From positions 18,569-82,568 of the forward strand of contig CAKOND010000004.1 of assembly GCA_934096945.1 (NCBI GenBank): DNA of 64,000 nt, read 5' to 3'. The translations under genes were made by a program, and so were the position numbers. Under the pieces are notes generated by a model that did not search any database, had not been told where the DNA came from, and saw nothing but the letters and a program-made list of their open reading frames with translations. Below, piece after piece: positions 3,025 to 20,125 of the stretch. Each line of letters begins with the position of its first letter. Position 1 is the stretch's first letter. This DNA is from an uncultured Bacilli bacterium (GTDB lineage Bacteria > Bacillota_I > Bacilli_A > RF39 > UBA660).

Positions 3025-6040
<3,016 letters not shown>

Positions 6041-6049
6041 GAGGTTAAT

Positions 6050-8545
6050 ATGGATCATAGTAGAGATAGATTACAAGAAAATAATATTGTAAGTGAAATT
6101 GAATCGTCTTTTATTGAGTATTCAATGAGTGTTATTATTTCCAGAGCTTTGCCGGATTTAAGAGATGGTTTAAAGCCAGTTCATAGAAGAATTATTTATG
6201 ATATGTTAGAAAATGGTTTGACACCAGATAAAAAACATCGTAAAAGTGCTACGATAGTTGGGGATGTTATGGGGAAATACCACCCACATGGTGACTCATC
6301 AATTTATGATGCTATGGTAAGAATGGCACAAGACTTTAACTATCGTTATTTACTTGTTGATGGACATGGTAACTTTGGTAATATTGAGTATCCTAGAGCT
6401 GCTGCTTATCGTTATACTGAAAGTAAACTTGCTAAGATATCAATGGAACTTTTAAGAGATATCAACAAAAATACTGTTAATTTTGTACCAAATTATGATG
6501 ATTCTACGGTAGAACCTGAAGTTTTACCTTCAAGATTTCCAAATATTTTAGTTAATGGAACAATGGGGATTGCTGTTGGTATGGCAACAAATATTCCACC
6601 ACATAATTTAGGTGAAGTTGTTGATGGTTGTATTGCTTATATTGATAATCCTGATATTACTACGGAAGAGTTAATGCAACATATTAAGGGTCCAGATTTT
6701 CCAACTGGTGGCATTATTTTAGGTAATTCTGGAATAAAAAAAGCTTATGAAACTGGTAGAGGTTCAATAACTATTAGAAGTAAGGCAACAATTGAAGAAA
6801 AAAATGGAAGACATTATATTGTTATTGAAGAAGTTCCTTATGGTGTTAATACACTTGATTTAAAACAAAAAGTTGCAGATTTAGTACATAACAAAGTACT
6901 TGAAGGTATTACTGATTATCATACTGATTTAAAAGATGGTATTAAAATAACTATAACGCTTAAGAAAGATGCTAATCCTCAAGTAGTTTTAAATAATTTA
7001 TATAAGCATACGGCTTTTCAAACAACTTTTGGTATTATTTTCTTGATGCTTGATAAAGGTGTACCTAGAACTTTAGGTTTAAAAGATATAATTAGTAAAT
7101 ATGTAGATTATCAACAAGAAGTTATTATTAGAAGAACTCAATTTGAATTAGATAAAGCTGAAAAGAGAGTACATATCTTAGAAGGTTATAAGATTGTGTT
7201 TGATAATTTAGATGAAGTTATTAAAATTATTAAAGAATCTAAGGCTGATGGAGAAGCTAAATCTAAGTTAATGGCACGTTTTGGATTAACTGAAGCTCAA
7301 ACTGATAATATTTTAGAAATGAAATTACGTCGTTTAACGGGTCTAGAACGTGAAAAGATTGAAGAAGAACTAAATACACTCAGAATCGAAATAGAACGCT
7401 TACGTGGTATTTTAGCGGATAATAATAAGGTGTTAGGCATCATTAAAGATGAAATGACTGAAATTAAAAATAAATATGGTGATGAAAGACGTACTAAGAT
7501 TGATATGACTGCGGTTGATTATATTGAAGATGAATCTTTAATTCCAGAAGAAAATATATTGGTAGTACTTACTAACAAAGGTTATATTAAGAGAACTACT
7601 GCTGATACATTTAAGTCACAAAATAGAGGTGGCGTTGGAATTAAGGGAATGTCTACGAATGATGAAGACTTTGTTGAACACATGATTAACTTATCAACAC
7701 ATGATTATATCTTGTTCTTCACTGATAAAGGTAAAGTATATAGACTTAAAGGTTATGAAATTCCTGAGTTTTCACGTCAATCTAAGGGTATTCCAATTGT
7801 AAATTTACTTCAAGTTGAAAAAGATGAAAGAGTTAATGCTGTTATTCAAATAAGTCGTGAAGAGAATAGTAAATACTTGTTATTTGCAACTGAATCTGGT
7901 GTTGTTAAGAAGACTTTAATTAGTGAATTTGATAATATTAGAAATAGTGGTAAGATTTGTATTTCTTTAAGAGAAAACGATAAACTTATTGGTGTTAAGA
8001 AGACTTCTGGTAATGATTTAGTGCTTCTTGGTAGTGATAGTGGTAGAATGGTTAAGTTTAATGAAGATGAAATCAGAGTTATGGGACGTACTGCTTCAGG
8101 TGTTCGTGGTATTTCACTAGATGGAAGTAAATGTATTTGTTCTGAAATTGTTAAAGAAGATGATACTATTCTTCTTGTAACTGAAAAAGGTTATGGTAAA
8201 CAAACTAAGGTTAGTGAATATCGTCAAACTAGAAGAGGTTCTAAAGGTGTTAAAGCCATGAATATTACTGAAAAGAATGGTAATTTAGTAAGTGTTAAGA
8301 TTGTTCATGAAGGCAAAGAACTTGTTATCATGACAAACTCTGGTATGACAATGAGAATGCCACTTGATCAAATATCTGTTCTTGGTAGAGTTACGCAAGG
8401 TTTAAGACTTATTAATTTAAAAGATAATCAAAAGGTATCTACGATTAGTTTAGTAGATAAACTAGAAGAAGAACCTTCTCAAGAAAGCATAGAACAAGGT
8501 GAAAATGTTGCTCAAAATGAATCAGAAGCAACTGAAAATATTTAA
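6050..8545 (+). CDS. gyrA: DNA gyrase subunit A
   Basis: 831 aa. Active-site region [14 protein letters not shown] (catalytic Tyr), the QRDR-like [13 protein letters not shown], a C-terminal beta-pinwheel repeat region and an acidic tail. Confidence 0.93.
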
Positions 8546-8552
8546 AATACTG

Positions 8553-8576
8553 AGGCTGAATAAGCCTTTTTATTTT
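8553..8576 (+). terminator. Weak rho-independent terminator after gyrA
   Basis: Hairpin AGGCT-gaata-AGCCT followed by TTTTTATTTT. Confidence 0.4.
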
Positions 8577-8747
8577 GAATCATTGTGTATATACAATGTA
8601 TAATTTATTAAATTACTTATAATATAAACTTATTTTTTTGGCTGAAATATGCCAAATATTTTTTATTATTATTAGTTGATGTATGAGTTATCAACATGAA
8701 TTTTAATTTGAATATAACTGGTTATTGAACTTTTTATTTCATATTTA

Positions 8748-8763
8748 TGTTTCACGTGAAACA
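8748..8763. promoter_or_regulatory. parS site 1, TGTTTCACGTGAAACA (perfect palindrome, 18 bp with flanking A/T)
   Basis: Exact match to the parS consensus. Preceded by gagTTATCAACAtg. Confidence 0.8.
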
Positions 8764-8879
8764 TTTATTAAGTATTGTTTAATTATCATTAATGTTTATT
8801 TTTTTACTTAATTATTATAATTTACTTATAAATTATATTATATCAGTTTATGAAGTTATTTGTTTATAATATGTCTGAA

Positions 8880-8895
8880 TGTTTCACGTGAAACG
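8880..8895. promoter_or_regulatory. parS site 2, TGTTTCACGTGAAACG
   Basis: 15 of 16 matches to the palindromic parS. Confidence 0.7.
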
Positions 8896-9026
8896 TTTGG
8901 GTATAACATTTTAATATTTTAATAATTTTGTTTTATTTTATATTTATTAATAATTTTTAATTTATATTATAATTATTTTCTTATTATTTTATTTATAACA
9001 TTTTTATTTTTTACTTTATATTTTAA

Positions 9027-9042
9027 TGTTTCACGTGAAACA
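9027..9042. promoter_or_regulatory. parS site 3, TGTTTCACGTGAAACA
   Basis: Perfect palindrome. Followed by ttgTGTTGATAAc. Confidence 0.8.
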
Positions 9043-9119
9043 TTGTGTTGATAACATGTTAGTTTTTACATTTTAATATAATAATTTTTATTTTTAATAA
9101 TTTTTACTGATTATATTTA

Positions 9120-9135
9120 TGTTTCACGTGGAACA
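9120..9135. promoter_or_regulatory. parS site 4, TGTTTCACGTGGAACA (reverse complement of the B. subtilis consensus TGTTCCACGTGAAACA)
   Basis: Exact match to the B. subtilis parS consensus on the opposite strand. Followed by TTGTTGACAAtt. Confidence 0.8.
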
Positions 9136-9205
9136 TTGTTGACAATTAGTTATTAATTATATAATAAGCTAATTATTATAGTAAAATAAGTCTTATATTT
9201 CATGA

Positions 9206-9221
9206 CGTTTCACGTGAAACA
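9206..9221. promoter_or_regulatory. parS site 5, CGTTTCACGTGAAACA
   Basis: 15 of 16. Followed by tctGTTGGTAAc. Confidence 0.7.
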
Positions 9222-9308
9222 TCTGTTGGTAACTTGTTTTTATCTTATAATTGGGTTTATCTTAATAAAACATTCATTTTTTTATAGCATTTGTAATTAA
9301 CAATTTTA

Positions 9309-9324
9309 TGTTTCACGTGAAACA
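9309..9324. promoter_or_regulatory. parS site 6, TGTTTCACGTGAAACA
   Basis: Perfect palindrome. Followed by ttacGTTGATAAtt. Confidence 0.8.
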
Positions 9325-9413
9325 TTACGTTGATAATTAGTTACTAAATACTTAATTAAGATTTACTTATGACATAATCATCTTTTACAATTAATATATA
9401 TAGCTAAAATATA

Positions 9414-9429
9414 TGTTTCACGTGGAACA
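9414..9429. promoter_or_regulatory. parS site 7, TGTTTCACGTGGAACA
   Basis: Exact B. subtilis-type consensus on the opposite strand. Followed by ttgTGTTGATAgtttgatgataatt. Confidence 0.8.
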
Positions 9430-9484
9430 TATATTTATTTTGTGTTGATAGTTTGATGATAATTAAGTTTATTATATGTTTGAA

Positions 9485-9500
9485 TGTTTCACGTGAAACG
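9485..9500. promoter_or_regulatory. parS site 8, TGTTTCACGTGAAACG
   Basis: 15 of 16. Followed by TTGTTAAtt. Confidence 0.7.
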
Positions 9501-9634
9501 TTGTTAATTTCCTAATAAATACTGCAATATTTTATACGAATAAATGTACACAATAACAAACAAATGTTTATTTAAAAATTTATCTTATTATATAACTATT
9601 ATTTTGAAAGATTTTTATATATAATTTAGCTTAC

Positions 9635-9667
9635 ATTATTTCCCGGGAAATAATTGGTTAACATAAT
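9635..9667. repeat. 33-bp repeat copy 1: 20-bp palindrome ATTATTTCCCGGGAAATAAT plus TGGTTAACATAAT
   Basis: A perfect 20-bp inverted repeat around the CCCGGG core, fused to a 13-bp tail containing palindromic GTTAAC. A second near-identical copy lies 158 bp downstream. Confidence 0.6.
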
Positions 9668-9792: not shown

Positions 9793-9825
9793 AATATTTC
9801 CCGGGAAATATTTGGTTAACATAAT
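9793..9825. repeat. 33-bp repeat copy 2: 20-bp palindrome AATATTTCCCGGGAAATATT plus TGGTTAACATAAT
   Basis: Same architecture as copy 1. The 13-bp tail is identical and the central 14 bp ATTTCCCGGGAAAT are identical. Confidence 0.6.
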
Positions 9826-9923
9826 ATTTATAATAAGACAAAATTTTAATAAAGTTAGTATTTATTGAAAGATATTTTGTATTTTTAGATTTATTTTCTT
9901 AGTTATTAACATTATTTTTGTGT

Positions 9924-9952
9924 TTGATTATACTTGACTTATTGATTATAAT
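9924..9952 (+). promoter_or_regulatory. Putative sigma-A promoter of the SRP RNA gene (TTGATT-17-TATAAT)
   Basis: -35 TTGATT at 9924-9929, a 17-nt spacer, and -10 TATAAT at 9947-9952, about 10 nt before the predicted RNA start. Confidence 0.45.
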
Positions 9953-9961
9953 TTGATACTA

Positions 9962-10046
9962 TTTAGACGTGCAACAAATATGCTGTAACTTGGTCAGGAT
10001 TGGAAAATAGCAGCCACATCAGCCTATGTTTGTGTGCACATTTTTT
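9962..10046 (+). ncRNA. ffs: Small (4.5S-type) signal recognition particle RNA
   Basis: Contains the conserved SRP domain IV helix-8 signature GGUCAGG-auu-GGAA-aau-AGCAGCC (compare E. coli 4.5S GGUCAGGUCCGGAAGGAAGCAGCC). Terminal helix GUGCAACAAA/UUUGUGUGCAC, then a U8 tract. Sits just upstream of dnaX as in Bacillus (scr-dnaX). Confidence 0.6.
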
Positions 10047-10058
10047 TTGGAGGAAAAC

Positions 10059-10487
10059 ATGGATACAGAAATATTAAATATTTTAATTGAAAATGCTAAT
10101 AAATCACTTGAAAATAATGATGTTCCAGTTGGGGCAGTAATTGTTAAAGATAGAAAAGTTTTGGCTTTTGGTTATAATACACGTGAAAAAGATCAAAATG
10201 TTTTAGGTCATGCTGAGATTAATACTATATTGGAAGCTCAAAGATTTTTAAATAATTGGAATTTAAGTGGTTGTGATATGTATATTACACTAGTTCCTTG
10301 TTCCATGTGTTTAGAAATAATTAAACAAAGTAGAATTGACAATATTTATTATTTGCTTGATAAACCAGCATCTAAGAAAGAATTTTATAAAACAAAGATG
10401 CAAAAAATTAATGATGCTAATTATGAAAATAAATATGCTGATATATTAAGTTATTTTTTTAAAAAATTAAGAGAAAAAAATAAATAA
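10059..10487 (+). CDS. tadA: tRNA-specific adenosine-34 deaminase TadA
   Basis: CDA-fold zinc motifs HAEINTILEA and PCSMCLEII. The true start is ATG 10059 (MDTEILN) after RBS GGAGGA. The ORF-track start at 10026 would overlap the SRP RNA 3' helix and terminator. Confidence 0.85.
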   Translation: MDTEILNILIENANKSLENNDVPVGAVIVKDRKVLAFGYNTREKDQNVLGHAEINTILEAQRFLNNWNLSGCDMYITLVPCSMCLEIIKQSRIDNIYYLLDKPASKKEFYKTKMQKINDANYENKYADILSYFFKKLREKNK

Positions 10488-10519: not shown

Positions 10520-12127
10520 ATGAATTACAAAGTTTTATATCGTAAATATCGACCAGATGGTTTTGATAATTTAGTTGGTCAAAAACATGTTGTGGATATT
10601 CTTAAAAACTCAATAAAAGAAAAAAGAATCGCACATGCATATCTTTTTTCAGGACCCAGAGGAACTGGTAAAACATCAACAGCAAGAATACTTGCCAAAT
10701 CAGTTAATTGTTTAAACAATAAGGATGGTGTTGCTTGCGGAGAATGTGAAAGTTGTTTATCATTTAATGGTAATCCAGATATTATAGAAATAGATGCGGC
10801 ATCTAATAATGGTGTTGAAGAAATACGTGAACTTATTAATAATGTTAAGATTATGCCTACAAGTTTAAAATATAAGGTTTATATAATAGATGAAGTTCAT
10901 ATGCTAAGTCAAAGTGCTTTTAATGCATTACTTCTTACTTTGGAAGAACCACCTGAACATGTTTTGTTTATTTTGGCAACAACAAACTTAGAAAGTGTGC
11001 CAATTACAATTGTATCGAGATGTCAAAGATTTGAATTTCATAGAATTACCGAAAATGATATAATTGAGAGACTTAAATTTGTATGTGATGAAGAAAAAAT
11101 TGCTTATGAAGATGATGGACTTAAAGAAATTGCTACTTTAGCTGATGGAGGACTTCGTGATGCACTTAGTATACTAGATCAACTTTCCAAAAATGGTGAA
11201 GTTATTACAAGTAAGTTAGTTTCTGAAGAAATAGGTAGTATTTCAAATAAAAAAATAGATGATTTAATTAAATATTTAGATAAAAATGATATTCAAGGTG
11301 TTGAAGAAATATTTAATCATCTTCAAAGTGTTAATTTAAATTATAAAGTATTTGTTAAAAAGTTAGTTTATGCTTTAAGTGATGTTGGAGTTAAACTACT
11401 TAATAGTCCAGATGGTTGGAGACTCGGCTTTGATGATTGTAAAAATTTAATCCTTGAACTTAATAATATACTTATGAAAATTAATATAAGTGTTAATCCA
11501 TATCTTATAATAAAAATGTTAGTTTTAGGTTATATGGATGGTGCAAAAAAAGATGCTCAAATTGATAAAAATTTTGAAAAAATAAATGATGTTCAATCAA
11601 GGTACGAACAGGAAAAAACTGAAGTACAAAGTAAAAAAATTATTTCAAAAATGGAAAGTACAAAAACACAAGAAAGCAAAAATAAAAATGTAGATATAAG
11701 AATTAATAATTGTTTTGCTGAAGCTACAAAAAATGATTTACTTAATTTAAAAGAAAAATGGGATAATTTTGTTGGTAGTACTGATGATGCATCTTTTAAA
11801 GGGCTTCTTAGTGATACAAGTGTTGTGGCAGCTTCACCAACATATGCAATTATTCAAGTTACAATACCTCATAAAGATAAAGAATTAATGGCAAAATTAG
11901 AAATTATAGAAAAAAGGTTTAATGATTTTGCTAATGTTAATTATAAATTAGTATTTTTAGAAGATACAAAATGGAATTATGAAAAAAATGAATATGTAAA
12001 AAAACTTAAGAGTGGGTATAAATATGCTATTCTTGAGGAAAAAGTAGAAAAAGAAGTTAAACAAAATGATATTGATGTGTCGGATGTATCTGATATATTT
12101 GATATAAATAAAATAGAAGTTGAATAA
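10520..12127 (+). CDS. dnaX: DNA polymerase III subunits gamma/tau
   Basis: AAA+ clamp-loader motifs (GPRGTGKTS, DEVHML, SRC) and Zn-module cysteines CGECESC. Conserved dnaX-ybaB-recR order. Confidence 0.9.
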   Translation: MNYKVLYRKYRPDGFDNLVGQKHVVDILKNSIKEKRIAHAYLFSGPRGTGKTSTARILAKSVNCLNNKDGVACGECESCLSFNGNPDIIEIDAASNNGVEEIRELINNVKIMPTSLKYKVYIIDEVHMLSQSAFNALLLTLEEPPEHVLFILATTNLESVPITIVSRCQRFEFHRITENDIIERLKFVCDEEKIAYEDDGLKEIATLADGGLRDALSILDQLSKNGEVITSKLVSEEIGSISNKKIDDLIKYLDKNDIQGVEEIFNHLQSVNLNYKVFVKKLVYALSDVGVKLLNSPDGWRLGFDDCKNLILELNNILMKINISVNPYLIIKMLVLGYMDGAKKDAQIDKNFEKINDVQSRYEQEKTEVQSKKIISKMESTKTQESKNKNVDIRINNCFAEATKNDLLNLKEKWDNFVGSTDDASFKGLLSDTSVVAASPTYAIIQVTIPHKDKELMAKLEIIEKRFNDFANVNYKLVFLEDTKWNYEKNEYVKKLKSGYKYAILEEKVEKEVKQNDIDVSDVSDIFDINKIEVE

Positions 12128-13276: not shown

Positions 13277-14146
13277 GTGGAAGCAAAAGCATTAGAAAAA
13301 TTAGTAAAATATTACCATGAGAATAAAATATCTCATGCTTATTTGCTTGAAACAAATAATTTAGAAAAATGCTTTTTAGAGCTTAAAACAGTTATAAAAC
13401 AAATATTTTGTCAAGATGAATATAGTGAAAAGTGTTCTAAATGTAATTTATGTAATTTAGTAGACCAAAATTATTTACCATCACTTGTAATTATTGAACC
13501 AGATGGAATGAATATTAAAAAAGAACAGGTACTTGAGCTAAAGAAACAATTTAGTATGGTACCAATTTATACTAAAGATAATATTTATGTTATAAAAAAT
13601 GCTGAAAAGTTAAATGGAGCTTCTGCGAATACAATGCTTAAGTTTTTGGAAGAACCTGAACCAAATATTATAGGTTTTTTTATAACTGATAATGCAAATA
13701 ATGTTATATCTACGATTAAAAGTAGATGTGAAACTGTAAAAGTTTATTATGATAATCATGAACTCGACATAAATTCAATTAATAATGATACATATAAAGA
13801 TTATACAGATATAGCAATTAATTATTTATATAAATTAGAAGTAGAAAAAAAAGATGTAATAATGTATAATAAAGATGTAATTTTGTGTAAGTTTAAAGAA
13901 AGAGAAGAAATTAAAACTATTTTTAAGATAATTCTTATTATTTATGAAGAGTTATTAAATAAAGTAATGGGATTTGAAAATAAGTTTAGTTTTAATAATT
14001 TGAATAACTTATGTCAATTATATTATAAAGATATATTAAAAAGAATAAATTTAGTTATTAAATTTATTGATGATATAGATAGCAATGTTAATATTGAATT
14101 ATTACTTGATAAATTTGTTATAGAATTAGGTGATTATAGTGAGTAA
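13277..14146 (+). CDS. holB: DNA polymerase III subunit delta-prime
   Basis: 289 aa clamp-loader fold with a degenerate P-loop (HAYLLE..). Synteny before yaaT/ricT as in Bacillus. GTG start after RBS GGAGG. Confidence 0.7.
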   Translation: MEAKALEKLVKYYHENKISHAYLLETNNLEKCFLELKTVIKQIFCQDEYSEKCSKCNLCNLVDQNYLPSLVIIEPDGMNIKKEQVLELKKQFSMVPIYTKDNIYVIKNAEKLNGASANTMLKFLEEPEPNIIGFFITDNANNVISTIKSRCETVKVYYDNHELDINSINNDTYKDYTDIAINYLYKLEVEKKDVIMYNKDVILCKFKEREEIKTIFKIILIIYEELLNKVMGFENKFSFNNLNNLCQLYYKDILKRINLVIKFIDDIDSNVNIELLLDKFVIELGDYSE

Positions 14147-14912
14147 AGTTTATGGTGTAGTATTTAATGGATTAAATAAAAAATATTATTATGAAAGTGA
14201 TGAAGATTTAGCGTTAGATACACTTGTAATTGTTAATACTGAAAGAGGTCTTCAACTTGTTAAAGTTGCTGAAGTTTTAGATAAAAACCTTGAAGAAGAT
14301 TTAGATAAAATAGAAAGAGTTGCAACTGATGAAGAATATGATGATTATTTAAATAATTTGAAAGATGCAGATAGGGCTTTGAAGAAATGTATTGAGTTTG
14401 CTAAAGAACTTGAACTTGATATGAATGTTGTTAATGCACAATTTAATTTAGATAGGAGTCAGCTTTTATTTAACTTTACAGCTGATGCTAGAGTAGATTT
14501 TAGAGAACTTGCTAAAAGACTTGCTTCAATTTATCACACTAGAATTGAATTAAGACAAATCGGAGCGCGTGATAAAGCTAAAGAAATTGGTGGTATTGGT
14601 GTTTGTGGTGGAGAATTATGTTGCCTTAGATTTTTAAAAAGAATTGATACTATAAGCATGAATATGGCAAAAGATCAAAATTTAGCATTAAATCCATCAA
14701 AAATAAATGGAGTTTGTGGAAGACTTTTGTGTTGTCTTGCTTATGAAGATGAAGCTTATATTGAAGCAGTTAAGAAATTACCTAAAGTTGGTGAAAAAAT
14801 TAAAACTAAAAACGGTGAAGCAGAGGTTGTTAGTGTAGATATTATAAATCATCGTGGAAAGATTATGCTTAATGGAGAAAAAGTAGATTATGATTTCGAA
14901 AGTGAAGAATGA
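14130..14912 (+). CDS. ricT: PSP1 C-terminal domain protein RicT (stage 0 sporulation protein YaaT)
   Basis: 260 aa with conserved Cys clusters GVCGGELCCLRF and CGRLLCCLAYE, typical of YaaT/PSP1. Synteny holB-yaaT. Confidence 0.8.
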   Translation: MIIVSKVYGVVFNGLNKKYYYESDEDLALDTLVIVNTERGLQLVKVAEVLDKNLEEDLDKIERVATDEEYDDYLNNLKDADRALKKCIEFAKELELDMNVVNAQFNLDRSQLLFNFTADARVDFRELAKRLASIYHTRIELRQIGARDKAKEIGGIGVCGGELCCLRFLKRIDTISMNMAKDQNLALNPSKINGVCGRLLCCLAYEDEAYIEAVKKLPKVGEKIKTKNGEAEVVSVDIINHRGKIMLNGEKVDYDFESEE

Positions 14913-14940
14913 TTTATTTGATTATCCCAATAGATATATT

Positions 14941-15612
14941 ATGCAAATCAAAGATGGGTTTAAGTTTTCCTTGGACTCACTTTTACTCGCGGAATTTACT
15001 AAATTACGTCAAAGTGATAAACTGATTTTAGATATGTGTACTGGCAATGCTCCGGTCCCTTTGGTGTTGAGTTTGAAAACTGATGCTAAAATTATAGGTT
15101 TTGAATTACAAAGAGCTATTGCAGAACTTGCCTGGGAGTCTATATCTATAAATGGACTTGATAAACAAATAAAAGTTATTAATGATGATGTTAAAAATAT
15201 TGGTGAATTTTTTAAACCAAATACATTTGATGTAATAACATGTAATCCACCTTATTTTAAAATAAATGATGATAAAAACAAAAATAAAAATGATTACTTA
15301 ACACTTGCAAGACATGAAATTGCTATAGATTTAGAGACTATTTTTAAGCTTGTTAATAGATTTTTAAAAGATAATGGTATTTTTTATATGGTACATAGAG
15401 CTGAAAGACTTGATGAAATTATAATTTTGGCAAATAAATATAAGTTAAATGTTAAAGAAATTCAATTTATTTCAACTAAAAAGAATAATAATCCAAGTAC
15501 TATTTTAGTTAAATGTGTTAAAAATAGTAAGATTGGTGTTAAAATAAAAAGAGAAATCTGTGTTGATAACCTAAGTACTTATCAACATTTATTTGAAGGG
15601 AGTGGTAAATAA
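14941..15612 (+). CDS. tRNA1(Val) adenine-37 N6-methyltransferase (TrmN6/YabB-like)
   Basis: SAM-methyltransferase fold with the NPPY catalytic motif (CNPPYFK). The likely start is ATG 14941 (MQIKDGFKF). The ORF-track start at 14890 overlaps ricT. Confidence 0.75.
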   Translation: MQIKDGFKFSLDSLLLAEFTKLRQSDKLILDMCTGNAPVPLVLSLKTDAKIIGFELQRAIAELAWESISINGLDKQIKVINDDVKNIGEFFKPNTFDVITCNPPYFKINDDKNKNKNDYLTLARHEIAIDLETIFKLVNRFLKDNGIFYMVHRAERLDEIIILANKYKLNVKEIQFISTKKNNNPSTILVKCVKNSKIGVKIKREICVDNLSTYQHLFEGSGK

Positions 15613-19924: not shown

Positions 19925-20125
19925 TAATTAACGAAGAAGGAAAGAGTAGATATCATTCATTTCATAGAGATTTCTTGGTTGGTGGAAAAGAAAAAATGAA
20001 GATATTCGAACATGGCTCTGGAGTTAAAATCGGGTAATTACGTTATAGATTTTAAGTTGCATGATAAATCATGAATTAAGGTGGTACCGCGGGTTATACT
20101 CGTCCTTAGTTTGTGATTTTTTTTT
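19925..20125 (+). promoter_or_regulatory. T-box riboswitch leader (probable Met specifier) upstream of dut-metG-tatD
   Basis: 20074-20093 AATTAAGGTGGTACCGCGGG matches the T-box consensus AATTAGGGTGGNACCGCGG at 18 of 19. A 16-bp helix (20066-20081 with 20104-20119) is followed by a T9 tract at 20117-20125. Upstream there is a candidate stem I with AGAGA and an AUGA specifier-like triplet at 19996-19999. Confidence 0.6.

Follow-up and report, generated by a model that had tools for sequence, protein, structure and literature searches.

The window, which is the whole 64-kb stretch of DNA analyzed here, carries a 1.2-kb spacer without genes between gyrA and ffs. The GC skew switches sign just upstream of dnaA, which places oriC ~9 kb to the left of this spacer. 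The spacer contains eight parS sites, two Noc-binding sites (NBS) and a set of DnaA-box-like elements. These features and the borders of the spacer are listed below. The palindromes, which are given without a strand, and the boxes that follow them were located by motif scan.

6050–8545, + strand, gyrA, left border of the spacer (NCBIfam GyrA equivalog, 1137 bits)
8552–8568, + strand, terminator-like hairpin and T-run after gyrA (terminator scan)
8688–8696, + strand, DnaA-box variant TTATCAACA (GTTATCAACA), exact, left edge of the array; variant also found in the sister-strain oriC
8748–8763, parS 1, TGTTTCACGTGAAACA, perfect
8880–8895, parS 2, TGTTTCACGTGAAACG, one mismatch
9027–9042, parS 3, perfect
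9046–9054, − strand, DnaA-box variant TTATCAACA, exact, 3 nt past parS 3
9120–9135, parS 4, TGTTTCACGTGGAACA, B. subtilis consensus on the other strand
9137–9145, − strand, DnaA-box-like element TTGTCAACA, 1 nt past parS 4
9206–9221, parS 5, CGTTTCACGTGAAACA, one mismatch
9224–9232, − strand, DnaA-box-like element TTACCAACA, 2 nt past parS 5
9309–9324, parS 6, perfect
9328–9336, − strand, DnaA-box-like element TTATCAACG, 3 nt past parS 6
9414–9429, parS 7, TGTTTCACGTGGAACA, missing in sister strains through a 31-bp indel
9443–9451, − strand, DnaA-box-like element CTATCAACA, 13 nt past parS 7
9485–9500, parS 8, TGTTTCACGTGAAACG, one mismatch
9637–9652, NBS 1, TATTTCCCGGGAAATA, perfect Noc-binding-site palindrome (0 expected)
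9795–9810, NBS 2, TATTTCCCGGGAAATA, sharing with NBS 1 a 34-nt repeat (NBS plus TTGGTTAACATAAT)
9903–9911, + strand, DnaA-box-like element TTATTAACA, right edge; exact TTATCAACA in sister strains
9963–10048, + strand, ffs (small SRP RNA), right border of the spacer (Rfam RF00169, 56.8 bits)

The eight-site parS array, first described in a sequence-only reading of this DNA, is confirmed in its core. Scanning the window for TGTTTCACGTGAAACA at ≤2 mismatches gave exactly 8 matches, all within 753 bp (8748–9500), the first of them 203 bp past the end of gyrA. At ≤1 mismatch, 8 sites were observed and 0.01 were expected from shuffles of the 64-kb window. Three sites are perfect (8748, 9027 and 9309) and five carry one substitution (8880, 9120, 9206, 9414 and 9485), rather than four of each as had been counted. 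The earlier reading was correct that two copies (9120 and 9414) match the B. subtilis consensus when read from the opposite strand (TGTTCCACGTGAAACA) and that the spacing is 71–147 bp (132, 147, 93, 86, 103, 105 and 71 bp in succession). It was also correct that the region is free of ORFs, with none of ≥60 aa and none of ≥35 aa in the spacer. Its AT content of >85% applies to the DNA between the sites (86.7% after removal of the palindromes), but not to 8740–9505 as a whole (82%). The sites fit the 16-bp palindrome of chromosomal parS, TGTTNCACGTGAAACA, and are origin-proximal like chromosomal parS, ~9 kb from the oriC upstream of dnaA. The array does not show the regular head-to-tail units of plasmid-type arrays; its spacing is uneven and its spacers are unalignable.

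Several other explanations for the spacer were ruled out. It is not a structured RNA or a small ORF, since no Rfam family reached the gathering threshold in the spacer and ORFs of the above length are absent. It is not an origin or a DNA-unwinding element, since both GC skew and gene orientation put oriC upstream of dnaA. An assembly artefact is excluded by the identical array in an independent ENA assembly (L001). Four sister-strain contigs have near-identical arrays, and the presence of a regular parS array in the long-read circular MAG L015 also counts against an artefact. A generic dispersed repeat is excluded as well: a scan for tandem clusters elsewhere at ≤1 mismatch, as the earlier reading had suggested, found no further parS, neither in the 64-kb window nor in the 20 kb to the left of oriC, and the matches of a motif-only metagenome scan lie almost exclusively at the gyrA/tadA/dnaX locus. 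The terminator-like hairpin after gyrA is predicted to protect the array against transcription read-through.

Among low-GC Bacilli of the gut and rumen, a large clade, a parS cluster at the gyrA-ffs locus is the rule. GyrA served to gather the genomes of 24 related species; 22 of them have 2–10 parS directly after gyrA (median 4 per cluster, maximum 10) in the locus gyrA-ffs-tadA-dnaX, and the contigs of the remaining two stop right after gyrA. NBS usually accompany these clusters. The classical Bacillales in the GyrA comparison have no parS right after gyrA. The motif-only metagenome scan, with the pattern NBS-N6-36-parS, returned 120 contigs, ~115 of which are low-GC and located at gyrA/tadA/dnaX; the 83 complete metagenome clusters have a median of 4 parS and 2 NBS over 739 bp. 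Between species, the spacer sequence, the unit length (35–147 bp), the copy number and the order all vary and the motifs stay. The logos are sharp (n=516 for parS and n=272 for NBS), and the sole free position in parS is the canonical N. Since the motif persists across >140 related loci whose spacers turn over, we consider parS to be under selection. Among sister strains (~92% identity), no stronger conservation of the palindromes over the spacers can be seen, in an alignment that is too shallow to separate the two. Within the species, one parS has been gained or lost by an indel. Regular head-to-tail units were found in three relatives, L015, L016 and L018, with lengths of 125, 64 and 82 bp, respectively.

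The sequence-only reading regarded the array as very unusual, which is true in comparison with model Firmicutes only, given its regular occurrence in the clade. Outside the clade, an unrelated Firmicute with 49% GC (L197) has 4 parS in ~780 bp upstream of parB. The earlier reading was also right that Bacillus-type genomes have an rrn operon after gyrA, as seen in L026 and L035. The proposed replacement of this operon by the array cannot be shown, because Erysipelotrichaceae relatives already carry parS beside ffs.

The two NBS, overlooked in the earlier reading, are located 137 and 295 bp past the last parS. Both are perfect matches to the 16-bp palindrome ATTTCCCGGGAAAT, and they are the only two NBS in ~84 kb of DNA from this species. 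When the core TTTC/CG/GAAA was fixed, the sites separated into 55 pure parS, 54 pure NBS and 2 hybrids. Such discrete classes fit two separate reader proteins. In relatives, the distance between NBS and parS peaks at 20–39 bp, and a strict alternation of parS and NBS recurs in several lineages. Some NBS in relatives are scattered within coding DNA.

A DnaA-box-like element had been claimed to flank each parS. An element resembling TGTTGATAA (≤1 mismatch) follows five of the eight sites, parS 3–7, with gaps of 1, 2, 3, 3 and 13 nt, and the claim holds for these only. Seven boxes in the spacer are within one mismatch of TTATCAACA, and two depart from the canonical TTATCCACA at no more than one position. 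In the array, TTATCAACA is exact only at 8688–8696 and 9046–9054, the others having a further mismatch. Such 9-mers are not rare in AT-rich DNA, with a background of 2–8% per 25-nt window and 8% inside the spacer. GTTATCAACA at ≤1 mismatch occurs 22 times in the 64-kb window against an expectation of 8.8 ± 3.1, and half of these occurrences lie within its first 10 kb. The sister-strain oriC is built from the same DnaA-box variants, including TTATCAACA. The possibility that the flanks are promoters, with TTGACA/TTGATA as the −35 element, was ruled out by a promoter scan, which gave 19 matches versus 19.8 expected and none at the flanks.

One alternative is that the locus is a plain ParB centromere, with the eight parS loading ParB. 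The NBS would then be ordinary scattered sites that happen to lie in the largest non-coding spacer, and the box-like flanks would be functionless, either hitch-hiking remnants of duplication or chance AT-rich 9-mers. The presence of only two exact TTATCAACA boxes, the 8% background and the NBS within coding DNA of relatives are in line with such a centromere. So are the many relatives whose parS arrays are entirely without boxes; those lacking the parS-box pairing include all strictly alternating parS/NBS arrays. However, the comparison across loci argues for a specific association. An exact TTATC[CA]ACA is found within 22 nt of parS in 9 of 107 and 42 of 417 cases, versus 1.1% and 0.8% of control windows, which is an 8- to 12-fold enrichment in two independent locus sets. 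About a quarter of the parS have an abutting DnaA box, the exact box being present at 10% versus 0.8% in controls. The canonical TTATCCACA accounts for 38 of the 51 exact boxes next to parS, and the gap is 1 nt in 23 of the 35 exact boxes in the main orientation. In the same comparison, NBS show no enrichment of exact DnaA boxes. In one relative (L017), whose GyrA is 69% identical and whose spacers are unalignable, the unit of parS and TGTTGATAAC is kept at 6 of 7 sites. The earlier proposal that the box-like element travels with parS has therefore gained strong comparative support, with a perfect TTATCCACA at 1 nt from parS in relatives and TTATCAACA in oriC. The preferred NBS-parS distance, the strict alternation in several lineages and the location of both NBS of the species inside the spacer also speak against scattered sites, and we consider a plain centromere unlikely.

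The candidate readers of these sites were searched for around the origin. Conspecific and related contigs have one gene with ParB_N and HTH_ParB domains, which adjoins rsmG. It is the single ParB-family gene in the origin region of three related species, where no parA was seen. The encoded protein has 380–413 residues and an N-terminal domain of the CTP-binding type (GERRxKA / ENIQR). The alignment gives Q-K-T-R at the four specificity positions, where the Noc type has Q173/K179/K184/R201, and K at 179 suffices as the permissive residue. It has been shown that Q173 reads A1 and R201 reads C6 of the NBS, given K at 179 or 184 (PMC7383237). On the basis of these residues, the rsmG-adjacent protein is predicted to prefer NBS. 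Its score with NCBIfam nucleoid_noc is 278.6 bits, under the cut-off of 315. The 150 closest cluster representatives are all of the short-N type, with Q-K-x-R in 129 of the 131 that have a readable motif, and both the homologue search and the search of representatives that started from the Noc-like protein yielded Noc-type (Q..R) proteins exclusively.

In B. subtilis, Noc has a requirement for its membrane-targeting helix (PMC8429893). The rsmG-adjacent protein has no N-terminal amphipathic membrane helix; it starts ~10 residues before PNRFQPR, with stops upstream, also lacks helix α2, and has a ~200-aa linker instead. An internal amphipathic helix, KMPNKFFNFLED, was considered as a relocated membrane anchor and is kept as a lead only, with a moderate hydrophobic moment (0.53–0.55) and an occurrence in only 4 of the 150 representatives.

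A canonical ParB (R173/G201 type) and a parA/Soj were looked for in the 64-kb window, at the related loci and in the 20 kb to the left of dnaA, and neither was found. For the species, this search covered ~84 kb of the ~1.5-Mb genome. The DNA left of dnaA, from conspecific contigs, was reached through DnaA and RsmG homologues, and the search combined a GERRxRA regular expression with tblastn, using approximate Spo0J and Soj queries. Since the only ParB-family gene seen is of the NBS type and parS is not a loading site for B. subtilis Noc (PMC8429893), we assume that the parS-binding protein is encoded elsewhere.

Alternatively, these reduced genomes may have retained just one ParB-family protein, the Noc-like one of 380–413 aa, which would load at parS as well as at NBS and for which the alternating arrays would be a composite centromere. 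This would agree with the single ParB-family gene and the lack of parA in the origin regions of the three species, with the near-equal scores of the protein against Noc (178–190 bits) and Spo0J (174 bits), and with the T at position 184, as in Spo0J. Dual-specificity variants do exist, amounting to 82 of 362 NBS binders in a mutational scan (PMC7383237). However, dual binders in that scan mostly have T/S at 201 and not R, and R173 is invariant among parS-specific variants (PMC7383237), whereas the protein here combines Q173, K179 and R201, a signature of the NBS type. The discrete site classes described above fit two readers, and the origin-proximal DNA inspected is a small part of the genome. 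A single protein for both palindromes is thus quite improbable in our view.

Very improbable is a locus serving mainly for DnaA titration (like the B. subtilis clusters or E. coli datA), duplicated soon after initiation and with parS in a secondary role such as placing the DnaA sink in a ParB condensate: the distance of 9 kb from oriC, the up to seven box-like elements and the B. subtilis clusters, which delay initiation and show genetic interactions with spo0J and soj (PMC3245932), are compatible with it, but parS is the universal element (22 of 24 species), boxes are present at most sites in only 20 of 76 metagenome loci with ≥3 parS, and weak variants make up most of the boxes in the window.

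We favor, with a probability of roughly 0.65, a compact centromere that is also a loading hub for ParB-family clamps and is coupled to DnaA. The gyrA-ffs spacer would be the compact centromere of the chromosome, located on the right replichore ~9 kb from oriC. The eight parS may give a ParB-type CTP-dependent sliding clamp several points of entry onto the DNA. Such a number of loading gates in an AT-rich, transcription-free spacer could provide a high loading rate and, with spreading of the clamps, one dense partition complex. Such a complex canonically recruits SMC and would organize and segregate the origin region. The two NBS probably load the Noc-type ParB paralogue encoded beside rsmG, and the TTATC(A/C)ACA boxes beside parS may be bound by DnaA. 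With NBS and DnaA boxes in the parS spacer, segregation clamps, a Noc-type clamp and the replication initiator would all converge on this locus as a hub. In B. subtilis, the coupling of initiation and segregation runs through Soj. Here the coupling could come from proximity on the DNA, either by DnaA titration, as in the B. subtilis DnaA-box clusters, or by DnaA at the centromere, as in Caulobacter. The layout shared by the clade suggests one compact hub that links chromosome segregation to replication control.

A more specific version is tentative. The unit of parS and DnaA box (often TTATCCACA-A-parS, with a 1-nt gap), together with the alternating parS and NBS, might form a ParA-independent coupling device. 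The effect could run in either direction: DnaA beside each gate may control the loading or the escape direction of ParB clamps, or ParB clamps may strip or sequester DnaA. The Noc-type clamp without a membrane helix would be co-loaded. We think that the odds are somewhat against this device. If it is true, a whole clade of small-genome gut Bacilli moved the crosstalk between replication, segregation and division, for which B. subtilis uses Soj, onto one 1-kb piece of DNA.

Each of the three elements, parS, NBS and DnaA box, is textbook knowledge on its own. Their architecture here is new, in that they form repeated, physically abutting units at one conserved locus. The host lineage consists of abundant uncultured gut bacteria with no parA seen near the origin. 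The spacer provides a natural substrate of ~1.2 kb for several questions: whether ParB clamps and Noc clamps can occupy the same DNA or compete for it, whether a tightly bound neighbor such as DnaA gates clamp loading or acts as a roadblock, and how initiation is coupled to segregation in the absence of ParA/Soj. These questions can be addressed in vitro or heterologously in E. coli, the organism being uncultured. The locus also shows that dense arrays of parS in non-coding DNA occur outside plasmids, and in Firmicutes as well as in other phyla.

In its 16-bp palindrome TGTTNCACGTGAAACA, the position of the free N (PMC7022226) and its location near the origin, the array agrees with other chromosomal parS of Firmicutes. 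B. subtilis has 10 parS/Spo0J sites, 8 of them in the ori domain. S. pneumoniae has 4 parS and an orphan parB without parA, which is a precedent for a parA-less configuration. Firmicute parS are spread over tens to hundreds of kb and are often intragenic, whereas here eight are found in 753 bp of one non-coding spacer. Unlike in these systems, no cognate parB was found beside oriC, and parS is paired with NBS and DnaA boxes. The intergenic DnaA-box clusters near oriC of B. subtilis restrain initiation together with Spo0J/Soj (PMC3245932); they are not interleaved with parS, and most boxes in the window differ from TTATCAACA at one position.

In Caulobacter crescentus, too, DnaA boxes lie within a tight parS cluster that is a few kb away from the origin, and the binding of DnaA to boxes in the parS region is needed for centromere translocation (Mera et al., 2014, as cited in PMC6399470). 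The Caulobacter system belongs to another phylum and is ParA-dependent, whereas here putative DnaA boxes and parS make up a repeat unit, often with a fixed 1-nt gap, and no parA was seen.

The NBS side of the locus resembles the Noc system of B. subtilis in its perfect NBS palindrome, the position of the gene beside rsmG, the Q, K and R specificity residues and the CTP-binding-type N-terminal domain. It differs in the protein, which lacks the N-terminal amphipathic membrane helix and helix α2 and has a linker of ~200 aa, and in the NBS, which are concentrated beside parS, often in strict alternation, and not only scattered. Plasmid centromere arrays, such as F sopC and other iterated ParB sites, also place many ParB-type sites head-to-tail in a short non-coding stretch. 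The regular units in L015, L016 and L018 are arranged alike; those in the window are divergent and unevenly spaced. In contrast to the plasmid arrays, the clusters described here use the chromosomal parS consensus and are flanked by core genes conserved throughout the clade.

The window begins within dnaA, which is followed by dnaN, a ComK-domain gene, recF, gyrB, gyrA, a 1.4-kb spacer, ffs, tadA, dnaX, ybaB, recR, bofA and holB, with pth and mfd farther on. All of them lie on the + strand, with a GC skew that stays positive throughout. A sister-strain contig reaching farther left shows the skew flipping sign immediately upstream of dnaA, in a region containing TGTGGATAA and several (T)GTTGATAAC boxes. 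Therefore, oriC flanks dnaA, and the parS array in the gyrA-ffs spacer is on the right replichore, ~9 kb from oriC. A hairpin after gyrA and promoter-like hexamers near the end of the spacer indicate that this spacer is transcriptionally quiet. The source is an uncultured gut bacterium of 27% GC. Human-gut assemblies contain it very often (a single DnaA variant is found on 436 contigs), and the closest genomes at species level are MAGs under the labels 'uncultured Bacilli' or 'Tenericutes'.

Features in and around the gyrA-ffs spacer (window positions)
6050-8545, + strand: gyrA, left border of the 1.4-kb spacer
8552-8568: terminator-like hairpin directly after gyrA
8688 and 9903: TGTTGATAA box in opposite orientation, bracketing the whole array
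9637-9652: Noc-binding site (NBS) 1, TATTTCCCGGGAAATA, perfect 16-bp palindrome, 137 bp past the last parS
9795-9810: NBS 2, TATTTCCCGGGAAATA, perfect 16-bp palindrome, 295 bp past the last parS
~9924-9962: promoter-like hexamers for ffs
9963-10048, + strand: ffs, right border of the spacer

Allowing up to two mismatches, TGTTTCACGTGAAACA has eight matches in the 64-kb window, all within 8748-9500, with 0.01 expected by chance (dinucleotide-preserving shuffles). The eight sites of the sequence-only reading thus stand, while its split into four perfect and four one-off copies became three (8748, 9027 and 9309) and five (8880, 9120, 9206, 9414 and 9485) on recount. The other strand of the sites at 9120 and 9414 reads TGTTCCACGTGAAACA. 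Start-to-start distances are 132, 147, 93, 86, 103, 105 and 71 bp. The AT content is 82% in the array interval and 86.7% without the palindromes, against 72.8% in the whole window. No ORF of at least 35 aa (hence none of at least 60 aa) and no Rfam family match was found in the spacer. The two NBS, for the ParB paralogue Noc, were absent from the earlier reading; they are the only ones in the 64-kb window at up to two mismatches, and none is expected by chance. With the (A/T)TTGGTTAACATAAT that comes after each of them, they make up a 34-nt repeat in two copies. At the motif positions, the array of an independent ENA assembly (L001) shows no base difference. In four sister strains (L083-L086), whose spacer is ~92% identical, a clean 31-bp indel removes parS 7 (9414-9429; numbered left to right) and other palindromes carry point changes, e.g. 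CACG to CATG, so the species complex is variable in its number of parS.

Several other observations were made along the window. A parS-like TGCTTCACGTGGAAGA with two mismatches inside gyrB (5263-5278) is probably due to chance; in the corresponding part of gyrB, L002-L004 carry a perfect NBS (~7705) that may be real. The ComK-domain gene (2462-2902; PF06338 in the L001 annotation, no NCBIfam match for the ORF as listed) lies between dnaN and recF, a position taken by the small S4-like yaaA in B. subtilis. The mechanical tadA ORF (10026-10487) overlaps the ffs 3' end (10026-10048); a start at 10059, as in the L001 gene call (10059-10487), is more likely. At 19925-20110, a T-box leader (RF00230, 110.7 bits) precedes a downstream gene; it is unrelated to the parS finding.

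Clusters of this kind are shared by the clade. With one GyrA-anchored genome per species (GyrA 59-82% identical), 2-10 parS are located directly downstream of gyrA in 22 of 24 relatives; the contigs of the other two end at that point. None was found after gyrA in ~55 classical Bacillales, Paenibacillus and Staphylococcus loci, and Lysinibacillus and Sporosarcina have an rrn operon there. In Erysipelotrichaceae (L034, L050), one to three parS are already present beside ffs. Several relatives alternate parS and NBS in regular tandem units.

Alternating parS/NBS arrays in relatives (copy numbers of very regular arrays may be collapsed in short-read assemblies)
L015, long-read circular MAG: 6+6 sites, 125-bp period
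L016: 8+8 sites, 64-bp period
L018: 8+7 sites, 82-bp period
L025: ~72-bp period

Another relative, L009, has ten parS in total. Three of them (14456-14561), 45 bp apart, are in a coding linker of dnaX (13347-15032) and translate as NVSRGTL, DVPRETS and NVPRETL, and the centromere of this relative therefore extends into a gene. Four more form a 44-bp tandem after ffs, and two lie between tadA and dnaX.

A metagenome scan by motif alone (NBS-N(6-36)-parS) matched at least 120 contigs. Among the matches listed, 117 of 120 have low GC (19-35%, mostly 21-31%) and the cluster adjoins gyrA, tadA or dnaX in ~115 of 120, so the parS-NBS association is locus-specific and a dispersed repeat is ruled out. 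Other explanations of the array, namely an artefact, a promoter array, an RNA gene or a second origin, were likewise tested one by one and rejected. In the 83 clusters uncut by contig ends among the matches listed, the median is 4 parS (range 1-10) and 2 NBS (range 0-8) in 739 bp, which places the 8 parS and 2 NBS of the window at the high end. Dense non-coding parS clusters also occur outside this clade: an unrelated Firmicute contig of 49% GC (L197) has 4 parS and 1 NBS in ~780 bp (1553-2335) upstream of a canonical parB (3313-4080) with an LGRGL N-terminus and R/G-type residues.

Both motifs are sharp across the clade. The parS logo is ATGTT[T 72% / C 26%]CACGTG[A/G]AACAT (n=516), with the canonical N as its sole free position, and the NBS logo is AAAWTATTTCCCGGGAAATAWTTT (n=272). 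From species to species, the spacers change in sequence, the units in length, and the sites in copy number and in their order relative to ffs. Therefore, selection acts on the motifs and their co-location. It is unlikely that the locus is a plain centromere whose neighbouring sites are incidental.

The parS are also associated with DnaA boxes. TGTTGATAA, the reverse complement of TTATCAACA, follows parS 3-7 at up to one mismatch, with gaps of 3, 1, 2, 3 and 13 nt; the claim that every parS is flanked by such an element thus holds for five of the eight and fails for the other three. Our first view of these elements as duplication remnants was changed by comparative data. A perfect box abuts parS in L003 and L005 (TTATCCACA-A-TGTTTCACG), and the arrangement is TTATCAACA-A-parS in L002 and parS-TT-TATCCACA in L010. 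In L017, whose spacers are unalignable with those of the window, TGTTGATAAC follows 6 of 7 parS after 3-6 nt. Exact TTATC[CA]ACA occurs no more than 22 nt from 9/107 parS of the species set and from 42/417 of the independent metagenome set (among the matches listed), versus 1.1% and 0.8% of control windows drawn from the same spacers; if one mismatch is allowed, the values are 25-26% of parS versus 6.3-6.6% of controls (both sets, the metagenome part among the matches listed); these ratios are inflated by shared ancestry of units and, since sites in one array are not independent, represent effect sizes and not p-values. NBS show no such enrichment (5/62). Among the matches listed, canonical TTATCCACA accounts for 38 of 51 exact cases (28 loci), and the gap is exactly 1 nt in 23 of 35 of the commoner orientation. 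This fixed gap suggests a direct steric or cooperative interplay. The pairing is lineage-dependent and missing from the strictly alternating parS/NBS arrays.

Leftward from dnaA, same-species and sister-species contigs carry a metallophosphatase gene, rpmH, rnpA, yidC, jag, a variable island, mnmE, mnmG and rsmG, then one ParB_N+HTH_ParB gene (382-413 aa), then unrelated genes; this region has no parA and no second parB.

L087 (conspecific contig) 10884-12125, left of oriC and outside the window: ParB_N+HTH_ParB gene, the only ParB-family gene near the origin

The jag-mnmE island (L083-L087, L090-L094) varies between strains and species. Next to a pair of small HTH_3 genes that is always there, it encodes a PT-HINT/intein-like protein, an AAA_14/DUF4143 ATPase, a DUF6273 protein or a 502-aa unknown.

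The rsmG-adjacent protein scores 278.6 bits on NCBIfam nucleoid_noc, under the 315 cut-off; alignment with Noc structures gives it 178-190 bits, and with B. subtilis Spo0J (ParB) 174 bits. Its four specificity residues are Q, K, T and R; ParB has R-x-x-G and Noc Q-K-K-R, and Q173 reads A1 and R201 reads C6 of NBS, given a lysine at 179 or 184 (PMC7383237). From these residues, NBS and not parS is the predicted binding site of the protein. For B. subtilis Noc, parS DNA is not a loading site (PMC8429893). Unlike Noc, the protein lacks an N-terminal amphipathic helix, and unlike ParB, an N-terminal ParA-activating peptide. A low-complexity linker of ~200 aa precedes its Noc-like C-terminal domain; in the L087 protein this linker has the conserved motif PDAFFSNxEKMPNKFFNFLED, which is similar to a Noc N-terminus. 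Of the closest 150 representatives, taken from a library with clusters at 50% identity, nearly all have the short N-terminus, and 129 of the 131 with a readable specificity motif have Q-K-x-R. They therefore constitute a large, undescribed-looking Noc-type subfamily. Searches with Spo0J and Soj (ParA) query sequences, the Spo0J core of which a PDB alignment confirmed, found no R/G-type ParB or Soj in the window, the left-hand 20 kb or other related loci. This would agree with one Noc-like protein of dual specificity serving both kinds of site, but the Q and R residues point the other way, and parS and NBS are discrete classes: with the TTTC/CG/GAAA core fixed and the variable positions scored, 55 sites are pure parS, 54 pure NBS and 2 hybrids. 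We regard dual specificity as quite improbable.

As the most probable reading, we propose instead that the eight parS are gates at which a ParB-type CTP clamp, encoded at another locus, would load, and that so many gates in a quiet, AT-rich spacer would produce one dense partition complex near oriC. By analogy with its family, such a complex would recruit SMC and organise the origin. The NBS would load a Noc-type paralogue into the same neighbourhood and DnaA would be expected on the boxes beside parS, and the locus could couple initiation and segregation by proximity. In the manner of the B. subtilis DnaA-box clusters, which act jointly with Spo0J/Soj (PMC3245932), the locus may be a sink for DnaA whose copy number doubles shortly after initiation. 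Alternatively, DnaA may act at the centromere itself, as described for Caulobacter where PMC6399470 cites Mera 2014. A locus devoted primarily to DnaA titration is extremely improbable.

The elements themselves are known, and by sequence and position the sites qualify as parS and NBS. Three aspects depart from the described systems that we found in the literature: eight parS crowded into 753 bp of one chromosomal spacer in a Firmicute, clade-wide co-clustering of parS and NBS up to strict alternation, and a repeated unit of parS and DnaA box. The nearest parallels are the parS region of Caulobacter with its DnaA boxes, the B. subtilis DnaA-box clusters, plasmid repeat centromeres, and the tight parS clusters of other phyla, e.g. 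those of P. aeruginosa, with four oriC-proximal sites (PMC4368675), and C. glutamicum (PMC7083940).
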